A DNA stretch of 64,000 nt, from assembly GCA_963849325.1 (NCBI GenBank), contig CAWKHF010000005.1:832001-896000 (forward strand), given 5' to 3'. Origin of the DNA: an uncultured Planctomycetota bacterium (GTDB taxonomy: Bacteria > Planctomycetota > Planctomycetia > Gemmatales > Gemmataceae). The notes beneath the pieces were generated by a model that was not told where the DNA came from, made no database searches, and saw only the letters and a program-made list of their open reading frames with translations. Position numbers and translations under genes: made by a program. Positions 3,006-12,003 of the stretch are shown in pieces; position 1 is the stretch's first letter, and each line of letters opens with the position of its first letter.

Positions 3006-3650
3006 ATGAGCCAAAACCCGGAAGTCCGGCTGGCGGGAACGGCACTCGGTCGTTCCCGGCACGTCTGCGCCTTCTTCCACACGAAGGATGAGGAGTACAA
3101 GGTACTCCTGCCCTTCATCAAGGAGGGCTTCGAGCAAGGTGACAAGGCGTTCCACATCGTCAAGGAGGACCACCGGCCCGAGCATCGACGGCGGCTGCAA
3201 CGGGCGGGTATCGCCGTGGACGAGGCCGAGCGAAAGGGACAACTGGAGGTCCGCCGCTGGGAGGATGCCTACCTGCGGGAAGGCCACTTTGACCAGAACC
3301 GGATGCTCGCCTTGATCGAGGAAGTCCTCCAAGGCGGCAAGGTGCAGGGCTACCGGATTACCCGGCTGGTCGCCAACATGGAGTGGGCGTTGGAGGACCG
3401 CCCCGGCGTGGACGACATCGTGGAGTACGAAACGCGCCTGAACTACGTCCTGCCGAAGTACGACGACGCCGTGTGCTGAACGTATGACTTGCACCAGTTC
3501 GGTGCAGAGGTCGTCATGGACATCATGCGGACGCACCCGATGGTCATCATCGGCGGCATCCTGCAAGATAACCCGTTCTTCGTGCCGCCCGATGAGATGT
3601 TGCGGGAACTGCGGGAACGTCGAGGCCGAAACCGCGTGACGGATCAGTAA
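3006..3650 (+). CDS. MEDS-domain sensor protein with an in-frame TGA at 3477-3479 (candidate selenocysteine); 214 aa with read-through
   Basis: RHVCAFFH...EEYKVLLPFIKEG...RLVANMEWAL...EYETRLN is MEDS-like. The same frame continues past TGA as TYDLHQFGAEVVMDIMRTHPMVIIGGILQDNPFFVPP, the normal MEDS C-terminus, to TAA 3648-3650. GGAGGG RBS lies upstream of ATG 3006. Confidence 0.8.
3480..3517 (+). promoter_or_regulatory. Putative bacterial SECIS element
   Basis: Hairpin TGCACC-AGTTC-GGTGCA (3490-3506). The loop starts 17 nt after the UGA, with G at loop position 2 followed by U. A lower stem is possible (ATGAC with GTCGT or GTCAT). Confidence 0.6.
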
Positions 3651-6600
3651 TGCACACGCCAGAGAACACCTTGGAAGAGAACCGCCACCTGCGGCGGACG
3701 ATGCGGGACTTGGTTGCCCTCTCGACCCTGCCTGCCGTCTGGACCGGCCTGAGTCCAGACGGCATCGTCCGCAGCTTGGCTGACGTGCTGCTGAACACCC
3801 TGTCGCTCGAACTGATTTACGTCGCGGCTGGAGGGTCTGGGCGGGAACGGCGTGGTCGAAGTCGTCCGCAACAAGCGTGGCCTCGACGCAGAACACGTCC
3901 AAGCGGTGAAGGCATCGCTCGCCCCAGTGCTGGGGGCCAACCGTTCCGACTCGCCTCTCACGATCCCCGATCCGTTCGGCGCTGGGACGTTGCACATTGC
4001 CATTACCCGGTTCGGCATTGCTGACGACCACGGGGTTCTGATCGCAGGTTCCCGGCGTGCCGATTTCCCATCCGAGCGGGACCGGCTGCTGCTCAGCGTC
4101 GGGGCTAACCAGACAGCCATCGTCATCCAGAGAAGGCGGGCCGAAGAGGAGGTTAGAGAGCAGCAAGAGCGGCTGCGAACGACGCTCGCCTGCATCGGGG
4201 ATGCCGTCATCGCCACCGACAGGATGGGGCGCATCACCACAATGAACGCCGTGGCCGAGTCGCTGACCGGCTGGGCAAAAGAGGAGGCGACCGGCCAGCC
4301 GCTTGACGCAGTATTCCGCATCGTGAACGAGGAGACACGCCAGACGGTCCCCAACCCCACGACGAGGGCGATACGGGAGAGCATCGTCGTCGGGCTGGCG
4401 AACCATACTGTCCTCATCGCCAAAGACGGTACGGAGCGGTTCATCGACGACAGTGCCGCCCCGATCCGGTGCAAGGAGGGCCAGATCATCGGCTGCGTGC
4501 TGGTCTTCCGCGACGTGTCCGAGCGGCGACGGTTAGAGCAGCAGAAGGCCGAGCAGGGTAGAGCCGCACGCAGGTTAGCGGCCATTGTGGACTCCTCGGA
4601 GGACGCCATCATCAGCAAAACGCTGGACGGGATCATCCAGAGTTGGAACGCCGCCGCCGAGAGGGTCTTCGGCTATACCGCCGAGGAAGCCGTGGGGCGT
4701 CCCATTACCATGCTCTTCCCCACTGACCGCCTCGATGAAGAAGACAGGATCATTACCCGCATCCGGGCAGGGCAGCGGGTGGAACACTTCGACACGGTGC
4801 GGCGGCGAAAGGACGGGACGACCATCCCGGTTTCCCTGACGATCTCACCCATCAAGGATGAAGAGGGGCGGATCATCGGGGCGTCGAAGATCGCAAGGGA
4901 CATCACCGAGCGGAAGCGGGCCGAGGAAGCCAACGCCAAACTCGCCGCGCTGGTGGAGTCCTCCGACGATGCCATCGTGAGCAAAAACCTCAACGCCATC
5001 ATTACCAGTTGGAATCGGGGCGCGGAGCGTATGTTTGGCTACACGGCACAAGAAGCGATTGGGCAGCCTGTTACCATGCTCATGCCCCCGGAGCGCGTCG
5101 ATGAAGAGCCGAACATTCTGCGCGCATCCGTCGCGGCGAGAAGATCGACCATTACGAAACGATCCGTCGCCGCAAGGACGGCACGCCGCTGACCATCTCC
5201 TTGACCGTTTCGCCGATCTTCGACGGCCACGGCAACATCATCGGTGCGTCGAAGATCGCGCGCGACATCACTCGCCGTAAGCAGGCCGAGGAGCGGCTGC
5301 GGCTGCTCTCGGAGGCGGCGGCGATCATCCTCTACGCCCCCGATCCGACTGCCCTGATGCGGACGCTGTTCGCCAAGATCGGCCCGACCATCGGGGCCGA
5401 CGTTTGCCTCAACTATCTGGTGAACGATGCTGGCGACGGCCTGCGGCTGGCGTCGTGCGTCGGCGTCTCCGAAGAGGCGTTGCCGCCCCGGCTGGTGTTC
5501 GGGGAAACCCTGTGCGGCACGGCGGCTCTACACCGCCAGCCCGTCGTCGTGGCCTACGTTCAGCAGTCCGACGAATCGAAGGCACGAGCGTACAAGTTGC
5601 TCGGCGTGCGGGCCTACGCCGGGTTCCCGATGCTGTCCGGCAACCTACTGCTCGGCACTTTGTCCTTCGCCACCCGGTCGAAGGACGAGTTTGCCCCTGA
5701 CGAACTAGAGTTTCTGGAAGCGATCTGCCGCTACGTCGCCGTGGCCTACGAGCGGCTGCGGCTGGTGGAGAAACTGCGGCAGGCCGACCACAAGAAGGAC
5801 GAGTTCTTGGCGACACTGGCCCACGAACTCCGCAACCCGCTCGCCCCGATCCGCAACGGCCTGCAACTGATGCAGATGGCGGGCGGGAAGGTCGAGACGG
5901 TCGATCAGGCCCGCACCATGATGGAGCGGCAGGTCGTGCAGATGGTGCGGCTGGTGGATGACCTGATGGACCTGACTCGCATCAGTCGGGGCAAGATCGA
6001 ACTCAAGAAGCAGCCGGTCGAACTGGTGGCAGTGGTGAACAGTGCGGTTGAGATAGCCCGCCCGCTCATCGAGGAGATGGGCCATGAACTGACCGTCCTG
6101 CTGCCTGAGCAGCCGATCATCTTGGAAGCCGACTCGACCCGGCTGACACAGGTGTTCTCGAACCTGCTCACCAACGCCGCCAAGTACACCGACCGAGGCG
6201 GTCGCATCTTGCTGACCGCCGAGCGGCAGGGGAGCGACGTGGTTGTGGCGGTGAAGGACACGGGCATCGGCATCCCCGCCGACAGGTTGCGGAGCATCTT
6301 CGAGATGTTCTCGCAGGTGGAGGCGGCGCTGTCCCGGTCGCAGGGCGGGTTGGGCATTGGCTTGTGTCTGGTGAACCGATTGGTGCAGATGCACGGCGGC
6401 TCCATCGAAGCCGAGAGCGAGGGTCCGGGGCGGGGGAGCCGGTTCGTCGTCCGCTTGCCGCTCGCCGTTGAACAGTGTGAAGCCAGCGTAACCGGCGACA
6501 ACGCCGAAGCGGCGAAGGCGACCTCCAAACTTCGCATCTTGGTGGTGGACGACAACCGGGACGCCGCCGAAAGTTTGGCGATGCTGCTCAAGATCATGGG

Positions 6601-6898
6601 CAACAACGTCCGCACGGCCAGCGACGGCGAGAAGGGGGTGCAAGCGGCGGCTGAGTTCCGGCCCCATGTCATGCTGATGGACATCGGCCTGCCGAAGTTG
6701 AACGGCTACGGGGCGTGCCGCCTCATTCGTCAGCAGGCGTGGAGCAAGAATATGGTAATCATCGCTGTGACCGGCTGGGGTGCGGATGAGGACAGGCGTA
6801 AGTCTCAGGAGGCAGGCTTCGACTATCACATGGTCAAGCCAGTGGACCCGACCTCGTTGATGAGGCTGCTGGCCGACCTGAGCGTTGTGAAGGCATGA
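3650..6898 (+). CDS. Hybrid sensor histidine kinase/response regulator (PAS x3, GAF, HisKA, HATPase, REC); two apparent frameshifts (~3830, ~5135)
   Basis: Joined ORFs 3650-4024, 3852-5192 and 5201-6898. Repeated PAS-PAC motifs (SSDDAIISK..WN..AER..GASKIARDIT), FLATLAHELRNPL H-box, NAAKYT/DTGIG/GGLGIGL boxes and a C-terminal receiver (VVDDN..MDIGLP..KP). Confidence 0.92.
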
Positions 6899-7396: not shown

Positions 7397-8080
7397 ATGA
7401 AGATCCTCATCGTCCTTACCTCTCATGATCGACTCGGCGACACCGGCAAAAAGACCGGCTTCTGGCTGGAAGAGTTCGCTGCGCCATATTACACCCTGAA
7501 GGATGCCGGGGCGGAAGTCACGCTGGCCTCGCCGAAGGGCGGTCAGCCGCCGCTTGATCCGAAAAGCGACCTCCCCGAGAACCAGACCGCAGCGACGAAG
7601 CGCTTCCGCGCCGACGCCGACGCACAAGCACAACTGGCTAACACGAAGAAGCTCGCCGATGTATCGGCAGGCGATTTCGACGCCGTGTTCTACCCCGGAG
7701 GACACGGCCCAATGTGGGACATGCCCGACAACGCGACCTCCATCGCGCTGATCGAAGCCTTCGTGAAAGCCGACAAGCCGGTGGGTGCGGTCTGTCACGC
7801 CCCAGCCGCTCTCATAAACGTGCGCGGAAAGAACCGCGAGTATCTGATCAAGGGTAAGCGCGTAACGGGATTCTCGAACGCGGAAGAAGAAGCGGTGGGC
7901 CTGACCGCTGTTGTGCCCTTCCTGCTGGAAGACCGTCTCAAGGAGCGGGGCGGTATCTACAGCAGCGCACCGAACTGGACGCCTCATGTCGAAGTGGACG
8001 GCAGGCTCGTGACCGGCCAGAATCCTGCGTCTTCCGAGCCTGCTGCGGCAGCGCTGCTGAAGTTGCTTTGTTCTCTCTGA
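7397..8080 (+). CDS. DJ-1/PfpI family (type 1 glutamine amidotransferase-like, Hsp31/glyoxalase III-like) protein
   Basis: TGFWLEEFAAPY, YPGGHGPMWD, AVCHAP nucleophile elbow and TGQNPAS; GGAGG RBS. Confidence 0.92.
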   Translation: MKILIVLTSHDRLGDTGKKTGFWLEEFAAPYYTLKDAGAEVTLASPKGGQPPLDPKSDLPENQTAATKRFRADADAQAQLANTKKLADVSAGDFDAVFYPGGHGPMWDMPDNATSIALIEAFVKADKPVGAVCHAPAALINVRGKNREYLIKGKRVTGFSNAEEEAVGLTAVVPFLLEDRLKERGGIYSSAPNWTPHVEVDGRLVTGQNPASSEPAAAALLKLLCSL

Positions 8081-8187
8081 GCCGAAGCAGAGGAGCACAA
8101 CGACGGGACCATCTCCGGGCTGCTCCGCAGGCTCGTCAGGAACTCAGGCCGAGCAGGCTTTCGCCAAGATCGCCGAAGGAGGGGACC

Positions 8188-8392: not shown

Positions 8393-10516
8393 TATTGCCA
8401 GCGTAGATCGCCTGAATTAAAGCATAAATGACAGATTTCTCTTCGTCTGGGCGACTACGAAACTCTTTTTTTGTGGTCATTCTTATCAGTTTGTTGACAA
8501 GAAAAGGCAGGCTGAAGCGGCCTTTAAGCTGATCGATATTCGCGTCAACCTGACGCTGCTCGTAGTAGTCCATCCCACTAGAAGGTTTTATTCTCACATA
8601 CTCGCACAAATAGTGGATAAGTGCATCATCGTCTTCTACCACTTTCTCCATAAAATCCGCGATTTCCTTATTATCTCTGTCAGCAATTTGTTCCCAGTAA
8701 TTGAGAATCGCGCAAATCCGTGGATGCTTCAGTAGTCGTCCATCAGCCGCCCATGTGGCAATTTTTTCGTTCATGAACCGCCTCGCATCTGCGCTTCCCG
8801 CAAGATACTTTTGACACATCAAGATCGGGATTAAAAGGCTCTTCGAAGAAGTCGCAGCCGCTTCCTCGATTGCATAACTGGGTTTGCTCTCGGGACCGTA
8901 GCGAAAGATCACTTGGTTGATTATGTCCATCACAAGTTGCGTTGTCGGAATGTCAAGGCTTCTCTCCTCTTCGGATGCGGAGCTTTCGTCGAACACATCA
9001 CCTAAATCAGCAAGCGCCATAATGAGGTTTGCGGCAATGTCATCAGAGACAAGTCGTGAATCTACATAACCCCAGAGAGTTTCCAATAACCGCCTAGCAC
9101 GGCCTTCGTTATTCAGGACTAATAGGCCACCAGCTAGCGCCTCGCAAATCAGTTGCATTTGTCAGGAGCCTTTCAATTTCGCTCCTCTCCAAATCTCCCC
9201 TCGGCAGAGAAAGGCTGAAGAACAGATCAAAATTGGTGGGAAAGCAGAATCCTTCCCTCTCTCCTCCACTGAGGCTGTGGCGTGTAATCGAGAACGCCCC
9301 CTTGTTTCTGTTCAGTAACAATTTTGTTAATCTTCGGAAATAGAAGCTGTAATATCGTAAGAGGATGGTTGTCCGATTTGCCCTTCTGCGATTTAACGAT
9401 TTCGTTAAGCGTGGCGACTGCATTTTGCATGATGATGTAATAAGGACTGCTTTCTTCTTTGGATGTCTGCCGAGTGAGAAACGTCTTGTTGGCGGCGAGG
9501 GCCTCGTAGATCGCAGGCTCAAATAGTTGAAGAACGGTGATGCCAATTAAGTCGGTCGGCGACAATCCTCCTCTCGCAGTGTTGAAGTTGAAGGACAAGA
9601 CGTTCAGATACCGCTTTGCTTCCCGAAGATCGGCGATGTAAGGTTTCACACCATACTGGAACACGTTTCGCAAATGATTTTGGTCGTATTCTTCAGTCTT
9701 CACTCTGTCCATCAGTTCCCGAATGGAACGCTGCAAAAACCTATGCACTTCCACGACGGGAATCTCGGGCACTCTGAACGGGACTTGGACGATCTTCTCC
9801 AAGAACGCCTCTCCGCTCTGGATTTGCACCCCCGCCAGTTGCTCTGCCACCATCTTCTCATCGAACGCCAACAGATAAACCGTGTTGGGGAAGTTCGCCA
9901 ACGACTTCACCACTTGGAACAGTTGCCGGGCCTCGGTAGCGCTCAATCGGTCGATCTCGTCAATGATGATGATCAGCTTGTGCGGTTGTTTGGCAAGTGC
10001 CTCGTCGATGTTCCGCTTTTGTTTTTCGATGCTCTCTGCCCCCGTCACAAACCCCGCGAGCCATTTGTTGAACCAATTAGCCAGCTTCAACAATCCGCCG
10101 ATGATCTTCCCCTCCGGGGTGGGGATCAGTCCCATCGGGGTAAGGTAATCCGAGTAAGTCTCCAACAGCCTTGACGTTTTCCTGATCCCTAGTGACGTGT
10201 TCCACTTGCCCAGCACGCCTAACATTTCGTCAAAGAACCTGTATATCAGGACGGTTTCGTCCGTCACCATCCAAGGGTTGAACTCGATGACAATCGGCTG
10301 TTCTTCCTTCCGTATTCCCCTGATCTTCTCCGCGAGACACTCCCTCGCCATTCGGAGTATGGAGGACTTCCCCGAACCCCACGGACCCAACAGCCCGATC
10401 ACCAACGGCGACTTGTCGGGACGGGACACGAGGGCCTGCGCCAGCGAGTCGGCGAACTTTTTTCGACAAAGAATGTCTTCGGCAGAAGAGCGGATCGGTT
10501 CGTCATCCAGAAACAC
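8385..10516 (-). CDS. KAP-family P-loop NTPase (two apparent frameshifts near 9250 and 9160)
   Basis: Walker A GPWGSGKSS, FNPW, Walker B IIIIDEIDRL, FLEKIVQVPFRVP. Continues through CFPTNFDLFFSLSLP into ORF 8385-9158. Lower GC than the flanks. Confidence 0.88.
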
Positions 10517-10525
10517 GTCACCCTC

Positions 10526-11394
10526 CTACCTCGGCAACAGATCATGCTTCCTCGCCTTCTCGACGAGATAGTTGACGAACCCCGAGCAGGACACCAGCAT
10601 GAACATGGCGTCCTCGGCCTCTGGCTCCTCATCGTCCTTGAGGGCGTGACGGATGCCGTGCGTATCGCTCGTGTAGCCGTACAACGCCTTGAACGCCTCT
10701 TGCAGCTTCGGATGGAGGTTCGTCCGTGCCTTCACCGCGTCAAGGGCCGGTCCCAGAGTTGCCCTTTCGTTCTGAGCGATGATCTTGCAAATGGCCTCAA
10801 CCGCCGAGATCGACTCTTTCATGGAGTTTCGGTAATCTGGCTTCTTCCTGTCGGCGAGCAGCTTGAGCGCTGTGCCGATGTGTTGGCTCACGGGCGCATC
10901 AGGCTCGTGTCCAGAGAAGCTGCCTTCTCGATGGCCTTGATCTCAGCCTCGCTGGTGATCGGAGTGAGCGTGCCGTTGACGAAGCGGTACGCCGAAAACT
11001 CCCGTTCCAGAACACGGTTGCAGGCGCTTTGGAACGTCACAGCCCACGCTCGGAGATCATCCCCGAGTTCTGCAACGAACTGCACGAAGTCGTAGATCCT
11101 GTTCCAAGGAACCTTCTCATTGAAATACCACTCCCTCACGGTCCTGAAGGCAAAACTCGGATCGTCGTAAAGCGAATCCAGCGGCCATTTGAAGAAGTGA
11201 ACCCACAAATTGACAAGTAGCGTCCCTGAGTGCCCGTCTCGACTCCGGGGTGATAGCCCCCATCCTCGTTTGATCGGCGATAAGATCAGTAGCTCGAAGA
11301 CGTTCCAGAGGCTATTTCGCAAATCCCAGTCCATCGAGTTCTTCTGCAACGCTTTCGTGGCCGGTTCCAGACCGATCCGCTGCGAGAAGTTCAT
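10526..11394 (-). CDS. AbiJ-N4-like abortive-infection protein with a C-terminal HEPN-like domain (frameshift ~10890)
   Basis: N-terminus FSQRIG...SMDWDLRNSLWN; C-terminus DYRNSMKESISAVEA...LYGYTSD..GIRHA...AMFMLVSCSGFVNYL. Confidence 0.75.
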
Positions 11395-11555
11395 ACGGCA
11401 TCTCCGTTGAACATAGGAACACTATCGCCATTATCCTTTCGGACACGGCAGGTGCAAGGTCGGTTCACGAACTTCTGTGGCTTCGATTCGTTTGTGGGAT
11501 CAGGATTTACGGCTTGGGAGACGAAAGCGGCTGGCTGGTGGTTGCCAGCGTCTGT

Positions 11556-11909
11556 TCAGCGCTGATTCGGATCGTTGATCGACTGCTGGAGTTGCTTCTT
11601 CAACCCTGCCACGGTGAAGTTCAAGTACGTCCCTTGCGTCTGCTCGGGATCAACGACGATCTCCGTAACGGATGGCGGGAGGGCCTTGAGGTAGAGATAA
11701 AGCTCGTGGTCCCAGTTGAACTTGATACACGGTCCTGCGAACTTCTGGGTAGCCACTTGTGCCGCCCTGAACTTATTCACCTTGTCTTCGCTCGTGAAAA
11801 GGGGCATCGCCACTGCCCCGGTGTTCAGATTCAAGACGACTCCGCCGTTGCAGGCGTTGTTCATGAGGGCGTAGCATGGGAACGGGATGGCCTGCTGAGG
11901 CGCGGACAT
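11556..11909 (-). CDS. Hypothetical protein
   Basis: 117 aa ORF with an AGGAG RBS upstream; no recognised family. Confidence 0.55.
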   Translation of the reverse strand: MSAPQQAIPFPCYALMNNACNGGVVLNLNTGAVAMPLFTSEDKVNKFRAAQVATQKFAGPCIKFNWDHELYLYLKALPPSVTEIVVDPEQTQGTYLNFTVAGLKKQLQQSINDPNQR

Positions 11910-12003
11910 CGAGGACTCCTTTGCGGCTCGAACAAAAGTAGTTTCGGATCAACAACGGATTTTACCACAAGCTCGGCTTCGGCCCAAGCGCGGTAGCGCA
12001 ACG

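Follow-up and report, generated by a model that had tools for sequence, protein, structure and literature searches.

The window analysed here is a stretch of 64,000 nucleotides (nt) from an uncultured Planctomycetota bacterium of the family Gemmataceae (forward strand of contig CAWKHF010000005.1, positions 832,001 to 896,000, GenBank assembly GCA_963849325.1); positions given below without a contig name count from its first letter. Near its start, on the + strand, lies a gene for a MEDS-domain protein (3006–3650) that is interrupted by an in-frame TGA (3477–3479), carries a short hairpin just past that codon (3489–3507), and overlaps at its end the start of a hybrid histidine kinase gene (3650–6898). 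A preliminary description of this DNA, made from the letters alone, had proposed that the UGA encodes selenocysteine (Sec). The analysis reported here favours that reading, through the recurrence of the TGA among homologues, selection on the codons that follow it, the hairpin, and the presence of sel genes in the genome.

The MEDS gene starts at ATG 3006, with a Shine-Dalgarno-like GGAGG (2993–2997, +), read from the sequence directly, 8 nt ahead of it. Homologues begin MSQ(N/K)PEVRLAG, which fits this start and not the TTG at 2991 given in the list of open reading frames (ORFs). The same list ends the gene at 3479, where TGC TGA occupies 3474–3479. As had been noted, another 56 codons follow without a stop in this frame until TAA 3648–3650, which overlaps the kinase ATG (3650) as TAATG. 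With the TGA read as Sec (U), the product has 214 residues and carries Sec at position 158, and the Pfam model of the MEDS domain (PF14417) matches residues 18–178, TGA included, over its entire length (profile positions 1–161 of 161), with a score of 147.4 bits where the cut-off is 29.8. The expectation that standard gene callers would truncate such a protein was borne out by the ORF list and by the NCBI record for the contig (P0122), which is 157 amino acids long. An independent contig of 1007 nt in ENA likewise encodes a 157-residue protein, 96% identical and ending on the same Cys157, that falls into one 90% cluster with the truncated NCBI protein of the window contig. Along the same lines, at least eight truncated cluster representatives, among 150 listed, stop within about two residues of the Sec site. 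The upstream neighbour gene is itself terminated by TGA (2873–2875), so the genetic code used here is standard.

The TGA falls on a residue under strong constraint. The preliminary description had placed it at the conserved Cys of a C-x-Y-D motif, and a 57-row alignment reaching down to 35% identity agrees: just three of its columns are invariant (C158, Y160, and H177), and that of the TGA, one of the three, has Cys in all 56 other rows. A protein search returned 7584 candidates at E ≤0.001 out of 8000 scored; most of the 120 homologues listed are 205–240 residues long, i.e., they extend past the Sec site. When 15 full-length homologues were aligned, the TGA column held Cys in 14 and Gly in one. 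Protein P0004 has Gly at the Sec column, as though the TGA had been read by another code in the pipeline.

Searches of whole genomes that read through stops, covering the window genome and 60 relatives (61 genomes), found a close copy with an internal stop in seven, namely the window genome and six others (five genera, same family). All seven copies contain a single internal stop, which is a TGA in the identical column, and the six others are 75–83% identical to the window copy. Two wider sets of loci, one from species-representative genomes and one from metagenomes, each comprise the best 80 matches to a query and hence form a biased census; the metagenome loci were retrieved using the Cys form as query. 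The species-representative genomes gave 79 copies at 78 of the 80 loci, the motif search having failed to locate the site in the other two, with TGA in 57 copies and TGC/TGT in 22. The 80 metagenome loci gave 68 copies with TGA, 13 with TGC/TGT, and one (L137) mis-registered by the pattern, whose printed motif residues read CC. The relatives' loci contributed three copies with TGC/TGT at the column. All sets together contain TGA at this column in 132 loci; some genome loci repeat those of the relatives, and removal of identical sequences left 97 distinct 48-mers. In three distinct loci (L023, which equals L045; L118; and L127), a Cys-form MEDS copy stands beside a Sec-form copy, and in L023 the two follow each other in direct succession on one strand.

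Coding potential continues beyond the TGA. Among the 130 TGA loci with enough flank, 129 keep the frame open for at least 48 codons past the TGA, and the next stop comes 47–68 codons after it. The median pairwise ratio of non-synonymous to synonymous substitution rates (dN/dS), computed over 48 codons on each side, is 0.107 downstream (6928 pairs) and 0.072 upstream; the 3' frame after the TGA is under purifying selection. The conserved Sec/Cys signature leads us to set aside the possibilities that the gene is dead, that it bears a nonsense mutation private to this genome, and that the TGA is an error of sequencing.

The hairpin is located as first described: TGCACC (3490–3495) and GGTGCA (3501–3506) enclose the loop AGTTC (3496–3500; AGUUC in the RNA), with G and U at loop positions 2 and 3, and an additional U3489–G3507 pair extends the element to 3489–3507 (+). 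Its loop starts 17 bases past the A of the TGA, i.e., with 16 nt between them. As laid out in sections of PMC13188914 (Zhang et al. 2026), the model of the bacterial selenocysteine insertion sequence (bSECIS) has a loop of 3–9 nt, a stem of 4–16 bp, a UGA-to-loop distance of 16–37 nt, a G in the first two loop positions that is usually followed by G or U, and a fold whose minimum free energy (MFE) is -7.5 kcal/mol or lower. The window hairpin agrees with all four bSECIS rules, which concern loop and stem (5 nt on 7 bp), G (at position 2, then U), spacing (16 nt), and energy. Its energy is -9.0 kcal/mol by the bSECIS script and -9.4 for the 19-nt fold. None of 200 dinucleotide shuffles of the 19-nt hairpin was as stable (z -4.82), and the 60-nt context around it is unexceptional, with a z of -1.69 and 16 of 200 shuffles equally good.

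Conservation of the hairpin follows the TGA. A hairpin with a GUU loop at the same loop position occurs in all 97 distinct TGA sequences, in which G21, U22, and U23 are invariant. The local MFE averages -10.2 kcal/mol in these sequences (range -6.6 to -14.7) and -4.1 in the 36 distinct Cys sequences; homologues with TGA thus retain the element, and those with Cys have a weak one or none. The stem comes in different versions by lineage with pairing kept: GCACC/GGUGC, GCGCC/GGCGC, GCUCC/GG(G/A)GC, and CGCCA/UGGCG, plus a bulged version, GGCCC/GG-U-GCC. In the 30 sequences that carry the first three versions in a common register, the pair 17–27, which joins the middle base of a His/Arg/Leu codon to the wobble base of a Gly codon three codons later, is AU in 26, GC in two, UA in one, and UG in one. 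The pair 20–24 is AU in 67 TGA forms, GC in 20, GU in one, and unpaired in nine; in Cys forms, the corresponding Phe codon ends in C regardless of the base at column 20. The 3' arm also encodes Gly166 (GGN), present in 115 of 115 distinct TGA forms; Cys forms have D (17), S (11), G (5), or E (2) at this position. When only contiguous stems were counted, 96 of 110 TGA sequences agreed with the loop, G, and spacing rules. The MFE of the whole element (≤-7.5 kcal/mol) was tried as a discriminator and rejected: in this GC-rich DNA, it was passed by 110 of 110 TGA sequences and by 36 of 36 Cys sequences.

The genome also encodes the machinery for Sec decoding, in part in broken form. The four genes selA, selB, selC, and selD, the lack of which the proposal had named as a refuting result, were all found, with selA and selB frame-broken in this assembly. 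selD has an open frame (386.9 bits), and a tRNA-Sec with anticodon tca lies at C6:239940-240031. selA adjoins selB on contig C12 (1294158–1297495, outside the window), the pieces of selA spanning model positions 1–454 and those of selB positions 2–294 and 398–576. In nine of ten other genomes of the same genus, selA is unbroken and in one frame. A formate dehydrogenase alpha-type gene (fdhA) on contig C10 (540688–543804) contains a single in-frame TGA, its 1126-codon frame being open apart from it, and is a candidate for a second, classical selenoprotein of this genome. Above the cut-off, selB was found in four of five other TGA-bearing genomes and in three of five Cys-form genomes; both genomes in which selB was missing are of the Cys form. 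In this small sample, TGA forms thus occur in genomes that decode Sec, and Cys forms occur with or without such decoding. The sequencing runs that were compared share ≤0.22 of sampled words (contigs only; shares <0.2 are uninformative on habitat). No difference at 3477–3479 was seen among the rows listed for contigs of four other runs that cover the site.

The protein had been described as carrying a vicinal Cys-Sec pair. Cys157-Sec158 is indeed present in the window; the pair is not a feature of the family, given that residue 157 is C in 73, T in 26, V in 12, and I in four of 115 distinct TGA forms. Cys157 being replaceable, the defining feature is Sec at the Cys of C-x-Y-D rather than the CU pair. 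An AlphaFold2 model built from the 57-row alignment has a mean predicted local distance difference test (pLDDT) score of 96.8, and the part after the TGA is modelled as strands (179–188) and a helix (195–213) at a pLDDT of ~97. In this model, Sec158 lies in a central strand (155–161, AVC-U-TYD), and the first strand (19–24) bears His19 and Cys21, both near-invariant. The best Foldseek matches are FlaH (4yds), PH0186 (2zts), SSO2452 (2w0m), and KaiC domains, at probability 1.00, template modelling (TM) scores of 0.53–0.62, and sequence identities of 9–18%; a sequence search against solved structures reached a best E of 0.86 (KaiC) and nothing lower. The 214 residues contain no Walker A motif (GxxxxGK[ST]), the sequence after strand 19–24 being HTKDEEY, which points to a KaiC-like scaffold without the ATPase signature; judged by its residues, the MEDS protein is very probably not an ATPase. 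The NCBIfam search returned no specific model: the RsbA model NF041045 scored 56.8 bits against a cut-off of 210, over profile positions 2–174 of 303 only. The remainder of that model we take to be a kinase-like C-terminal half.

The kinase gene (3650–6898, +) encodes, by Pfam, a GAF-like N-terminus, three PAS domains, a GAF domain, HisKA, HATPase_c, and a receiver. Its N-terminal region (~165 residues) is weakly GAF-like (E 0.0076, under the cut-off), and in 81 of 88 loci, whether the MEDS gene is of the Sec or the Cys form, a homologous region is found directly 3' of it. Ten longer homologues were examined: seven are MEDS-kinase fusions, one is fused to a sigma-54 activator, another has B12-binding domains attached, and the last carries MEDS twice. 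Based on the adjacency of the kinase, the stop/start overlap, and the fusions, we suppose that the MEDS protein serves the neighbouring hybrid kinase as its input module and probably regulates it. From the same context, a signalling rather than an enzymatic selenoprotein, as the preliminary description had it, is plausible. A gene of the XRE helix-turn-helix type upstream (2540–2875) was considered as part of the module and rejected, as it stands beside the MEDS gene in none of 88 other loci. The kinase runs in three frames in this assembly (3650–about 3823, 3852–5192, and 5201–6898), with an extra base at 3822–3824 that is absent in a same-genus locus and in contigs of three other samples. 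At 4924–5275, where PAS domains resembling one another stand in a row, the window has 350 nt and a related contig 486.

Several observations weigh against reading the TGA as Sec. In this assembly, selA is spread over three frames and selB over two, which could reflect either assembly indel errors or Sec machinery decaying in the strain. We tentatively read the breaks in selA/selB and in the kinase as assembly indels, to which the absence of the extra kinase base from the contigs of three other samples points. In the fifth TGA-bearing genome, selB does not reach the cut-off and shows up as two fragments side by side, of 169.8 and 69 bits. As for the hairpin, it reaches -7.5 kcal/mol by itself in 30 of 110 TGA sequences when stems have to be contiguous (and in none of 36 Cys forms). 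RNAalifold, run on the 97 TGA sequences, returned a trivial structure of 4 pairs at -0.6 kcal/mol and no common hairpin, because the stems use three registers. Similarly, a single fixed register pairs 62.6% of cells vs. 56.7% in shuffles, since the register of the stem shifts among lineages. A phylogeny-aware test of covariation at 20–24 gave p 0.5, with only four independent pairs on supported branches. Synonymous resampling gave a moderate signal: the median share of resampled sequences as stable as the observed one is 0.18, and 15 of 97 sequences reach ≤0.05. Lastly, an Rfam scan of 3400–3700 with E up to 10 yielded chance matches to small nucleolar RNAs and no SECIS family.

These observations have to be weighed together with the other ways of explaining the codon. 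If the TGA were a true stop, the gene would be a nonsense mutant or would naturally make a 157-residue fragment, its last 56 codons untranslated, which is how gene callers and the NCBI record finish the protein and what might be expected if a strain with frame-broken selA and selB did not decode Sec. Sec insertion is usually incomplete, and some truncated product is expected regardless. However, the 48 codons downstream evolve at a dN/dS of ~0.11, much as those upstream do, and are free of stops in 129 of 130 loci; neither the MEDS profile, which runs to residue 178, nor the confidently modelled fold is complete without the part after the TGA; and an inherited nonsense mutation would not last at one column in 97 distinct sequences from many lineages. 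We regard a true stop as most unlikely. Very unlikely, too, is that the TGA is read through without Sec, by a near-cognate tRNA (Trp/Cys) or under a local code, with the hairpin doing nothing but slowing termination: the site is an invariant Cys, a typical Sec/Cys pair; the hairpin fits the SelB-type bSECIS in its loop, the position of its G, and its spacing; selB is found in the window genome and in four of five other TGA genomes; and TGA terminates the neighbouring gene under a standard code. This explanation would account for the Gly at the column in P0004, as if another code had been used by the pipeline, and for the TGA-bearing genome that lacks selB above the cut-off. A sequencing or assembly error for TGC or TGT in this genome, to which the frame breaks in the kinase, selA, and selB lend some colour, is barely conceivable, given that the observed breaks are indels and not substitutions, that the same TGA stands in 131 other loci from independent assemblies, and that 3477–3479 is unchanged among the rows listed for four other runs. 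The apparent stop is very probably a genuine Sec codon of this family. For this particular strain, the Sec reading is held with slightly less confidence because the selA and selB frames are broken. SelB binding to the hairpin and actual Sec insertion are what we infer from this signature.

With Sec retained, the mechanism that we propose can be rationalized as follows. At UGA 3477–3479, the ribosome would meet SelB carrying Sec-tRNA(Sec), recruited by the hairpin at 3490–3506 with its GUU loop 16–17 nt downstream; Sec would be inserted at position 158, and translation would continue for 56 more codons to TAA 3648, overlapping the kinase start. Sec158 would then serve as the reactive nucleophile of a switch that includes His19, Cys21, Tyr160, and His177. 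Oxidation that joins Sec158 to Cys21 or Cys157 in a selenenylsulfide, or else its alkylation by an electrophile, may alter how the protein acts on the GAF-like N-terminal domain of the kinase. This role of Sec158 in a covalent or redox switch is our preferred mechanism, a tentative choice held at somewhat less than even confidence. The adjacency of the strands bearing Sec158 and Cys21, which we presume from the RecA-type strand order, is a weak point of this scheme. The broader proposal that MEDS is a covalent sensor, whose invariant Cys/Sec reacts with oxidants or small electrophiles and thereby switches the partner histidine kinase, is possible, and we think it rather less than evenly likely. 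Both dichloromethane and epoxyethane are electrophiles. Passages of PMC11507031 describe MEDS regulators as sensing simple hydrocarbon derivatives such as these two, and the few regulators studied belong with gene clusters for one or the other. A different function for the same residue would be ligation: Sec158, together with His19, Cys21, and His177, may bind a metal or cofactor, in which case the protein would sense a metal, a metalloid, or a gas. Such a site could be built from the near-invariant residues, which are two His, one Cys, and the Sec/Cys position, and the CU pair is found in 73 of 115 TGA forms; CU/CC motifs of other selenoproteins have been read as heavy-metal sites in parts of the 2022 preprint by Haft and Gwadz. 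Against ligation, Cys157 gives way to T, V, or I in 42 of 115 TGA forms, and the searches gave no match to a metal-binding family, with Pfam returning MEDS only and NCBIfam a sub-threshold RsbA only. We consider a metal- or cofactor-binding role the chief alternative, somewhat less likely than the switch.

To place the Sec forms in the history of the family, a FastTree phylogeny was computed from 150 distinct protein rows (115 U and 35 C); left out were 29 rows that were duplicates or incomplete, as well as the site column. On this unrooted tree, the U/C label changes at least five times. The U forms sit in one large group of 122 rows that includes seven Cys forms, with modest support (26 of 147 inner branches starred). 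A single origin of Sec is compatible with the tree, and the unrooted count is silent on the direction of change. One Cys form within the Sec group, at metagenome locus L119, keeps its hairpin at -9.1 kcal/mol and is possibly a recent Sec-to-Cys change. The records in the U group bear titles that refer to Acidobacteriota, Planctomycetota, Armatimonadota, Binatota, and Eisenbacteria, together with some Pseudomonadota and Actinomycetota bins. All TGA-bearing records among those listed are metagenome-assembled, and the family comes mostly from soil metagenomes. This spread across phyla suggests horizontal transfer, subject to bin quality. Locus L040 has the record title 'uncultured Alcaligenaceae bacterium', yet over the stretch compared it matches L021, whose genome the coded taxonomy assigns to the same family as the window genome. 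Some titles of these bins are thus not to be relied on, and both the cross-phylum spread and the suggested transfer depend on how good the bins are. The window copy is nearest to metagenome loci and to loci labelled Gemmataceae or Pirellulales (90–95% identity), vs. 76–83% for same-genus relatives.

Just past the kinase lies a DJ-1/PfpI family protein (7397–8080, +), then a cut oxidoreductase gene. Near 8185, the latter matches only positions 1–40 of the 108-position ADH_N_2 profile and breaks off near 8400. From ~8400 to 12000, the G+C content is 0.47–0.57 vs. 0.65 for the genome, and the genes lie on the opposite strand; the oxidoreductase gene looks as if it had been cut by an inserted island. 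DJ-1/PfpI and that oxidoreductase family include enzymes that detoxify reactive electrophiles. On the other side, a Hen1_L domain (2–670, -; 355.7 bits), named after Hen1, an RNA repair protein associated with Pnkp, extends beyond the start of the window, and the gene of a PcfJ-like protein (852–2342, +; 50 bits) adjoins it.

Compared with known systems, the MEDS gene resembles most closely the bacterial genes read by SelB, with E. coli fdhF as the prototype: in both, the UGA stands at a conserved Cys position, a hairpin within the coding sequence follows just downstream with G then U in its loop, the hairpin constrains a residue (here Gly166), Cys-form homologues exist, and selA, selB, selC, and selD are in the genome. 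It differs from them in that the register of the MEDS stem varies by lineage, giving no single consensus, and in having no Rfam match. The MEDS regulators covered in passages of PMC11507031 (DcmR of Methylobacterium; EtnR2 and the Methylohalobius regulator, both of epoxyethane clusters; and actinobacterial anti-sigma factors of the RsbA type) share with the window protein the full-length domain and a signalling setting, whereas the window encodes a separate protein, 214 residues long, in which Sec takes the place of the invariant Cys. In the passages of that paper that deal with these regulators, neither a ligand nor a mechanism is established for MEDS. A Cys-Sec pair is also found in the CU selenoproteins SaoL (MerB-like), SaoC, HgcA, MbdU, KCU-star, and Csac_0668 (PMC13188914; Haft and Gwadz 2022), which are unrelated in fold and family and differ in that the Cys of the pair is dispensable in MEDS forms (another residue in 42 of 115). 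The single-domain proteins of the KaiC/RecA-like type share the scaffold; the MEDS protein, unlike them, lacks Walker A, at an identity of 9–18%.

None of the 119 families and subfamilies that PMC13188914 (2026) tabulates, in a Table 1 styled the most comprehensive inventory, is MEDS/PF14417. Similarly, searches for the term in the main texts of BSepDB 2026, deep-Sep 2025, the 2026 review, Haft and Gwadz 2022, a 2022 review, and PMC4807772 gave no mention of MEDS, which their supplementary tables could list, and literature searches turned up no MEDS or DcmR protein reported with selenium. The prokaryotic selenoproteins catalogued in PMC13188914 are almost all redox enzymes, metal handlers, or transport components, and include no such sensory-domain protein. 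Measured against these sources, the protein family and its place in signal transduction are what is new; the way in which Sec would be inserted is a known one.

Among the homologues fetched, in the best-80 sets, TGA forms outnumber Cys forms by 57:22 in genomes and by 68:13 in metagenomes. The position of Sec marks a functionally critical residue of the MEDS domain and makes what MEDS senses directly testable. If the protein is indeed a covalent sensor, two-component signalling would have its first sensor that depends on selenium, and the signalling sensitivity of abundant soil Acidobacteriota and Planctomycetota would be tied to the supply of selenium.

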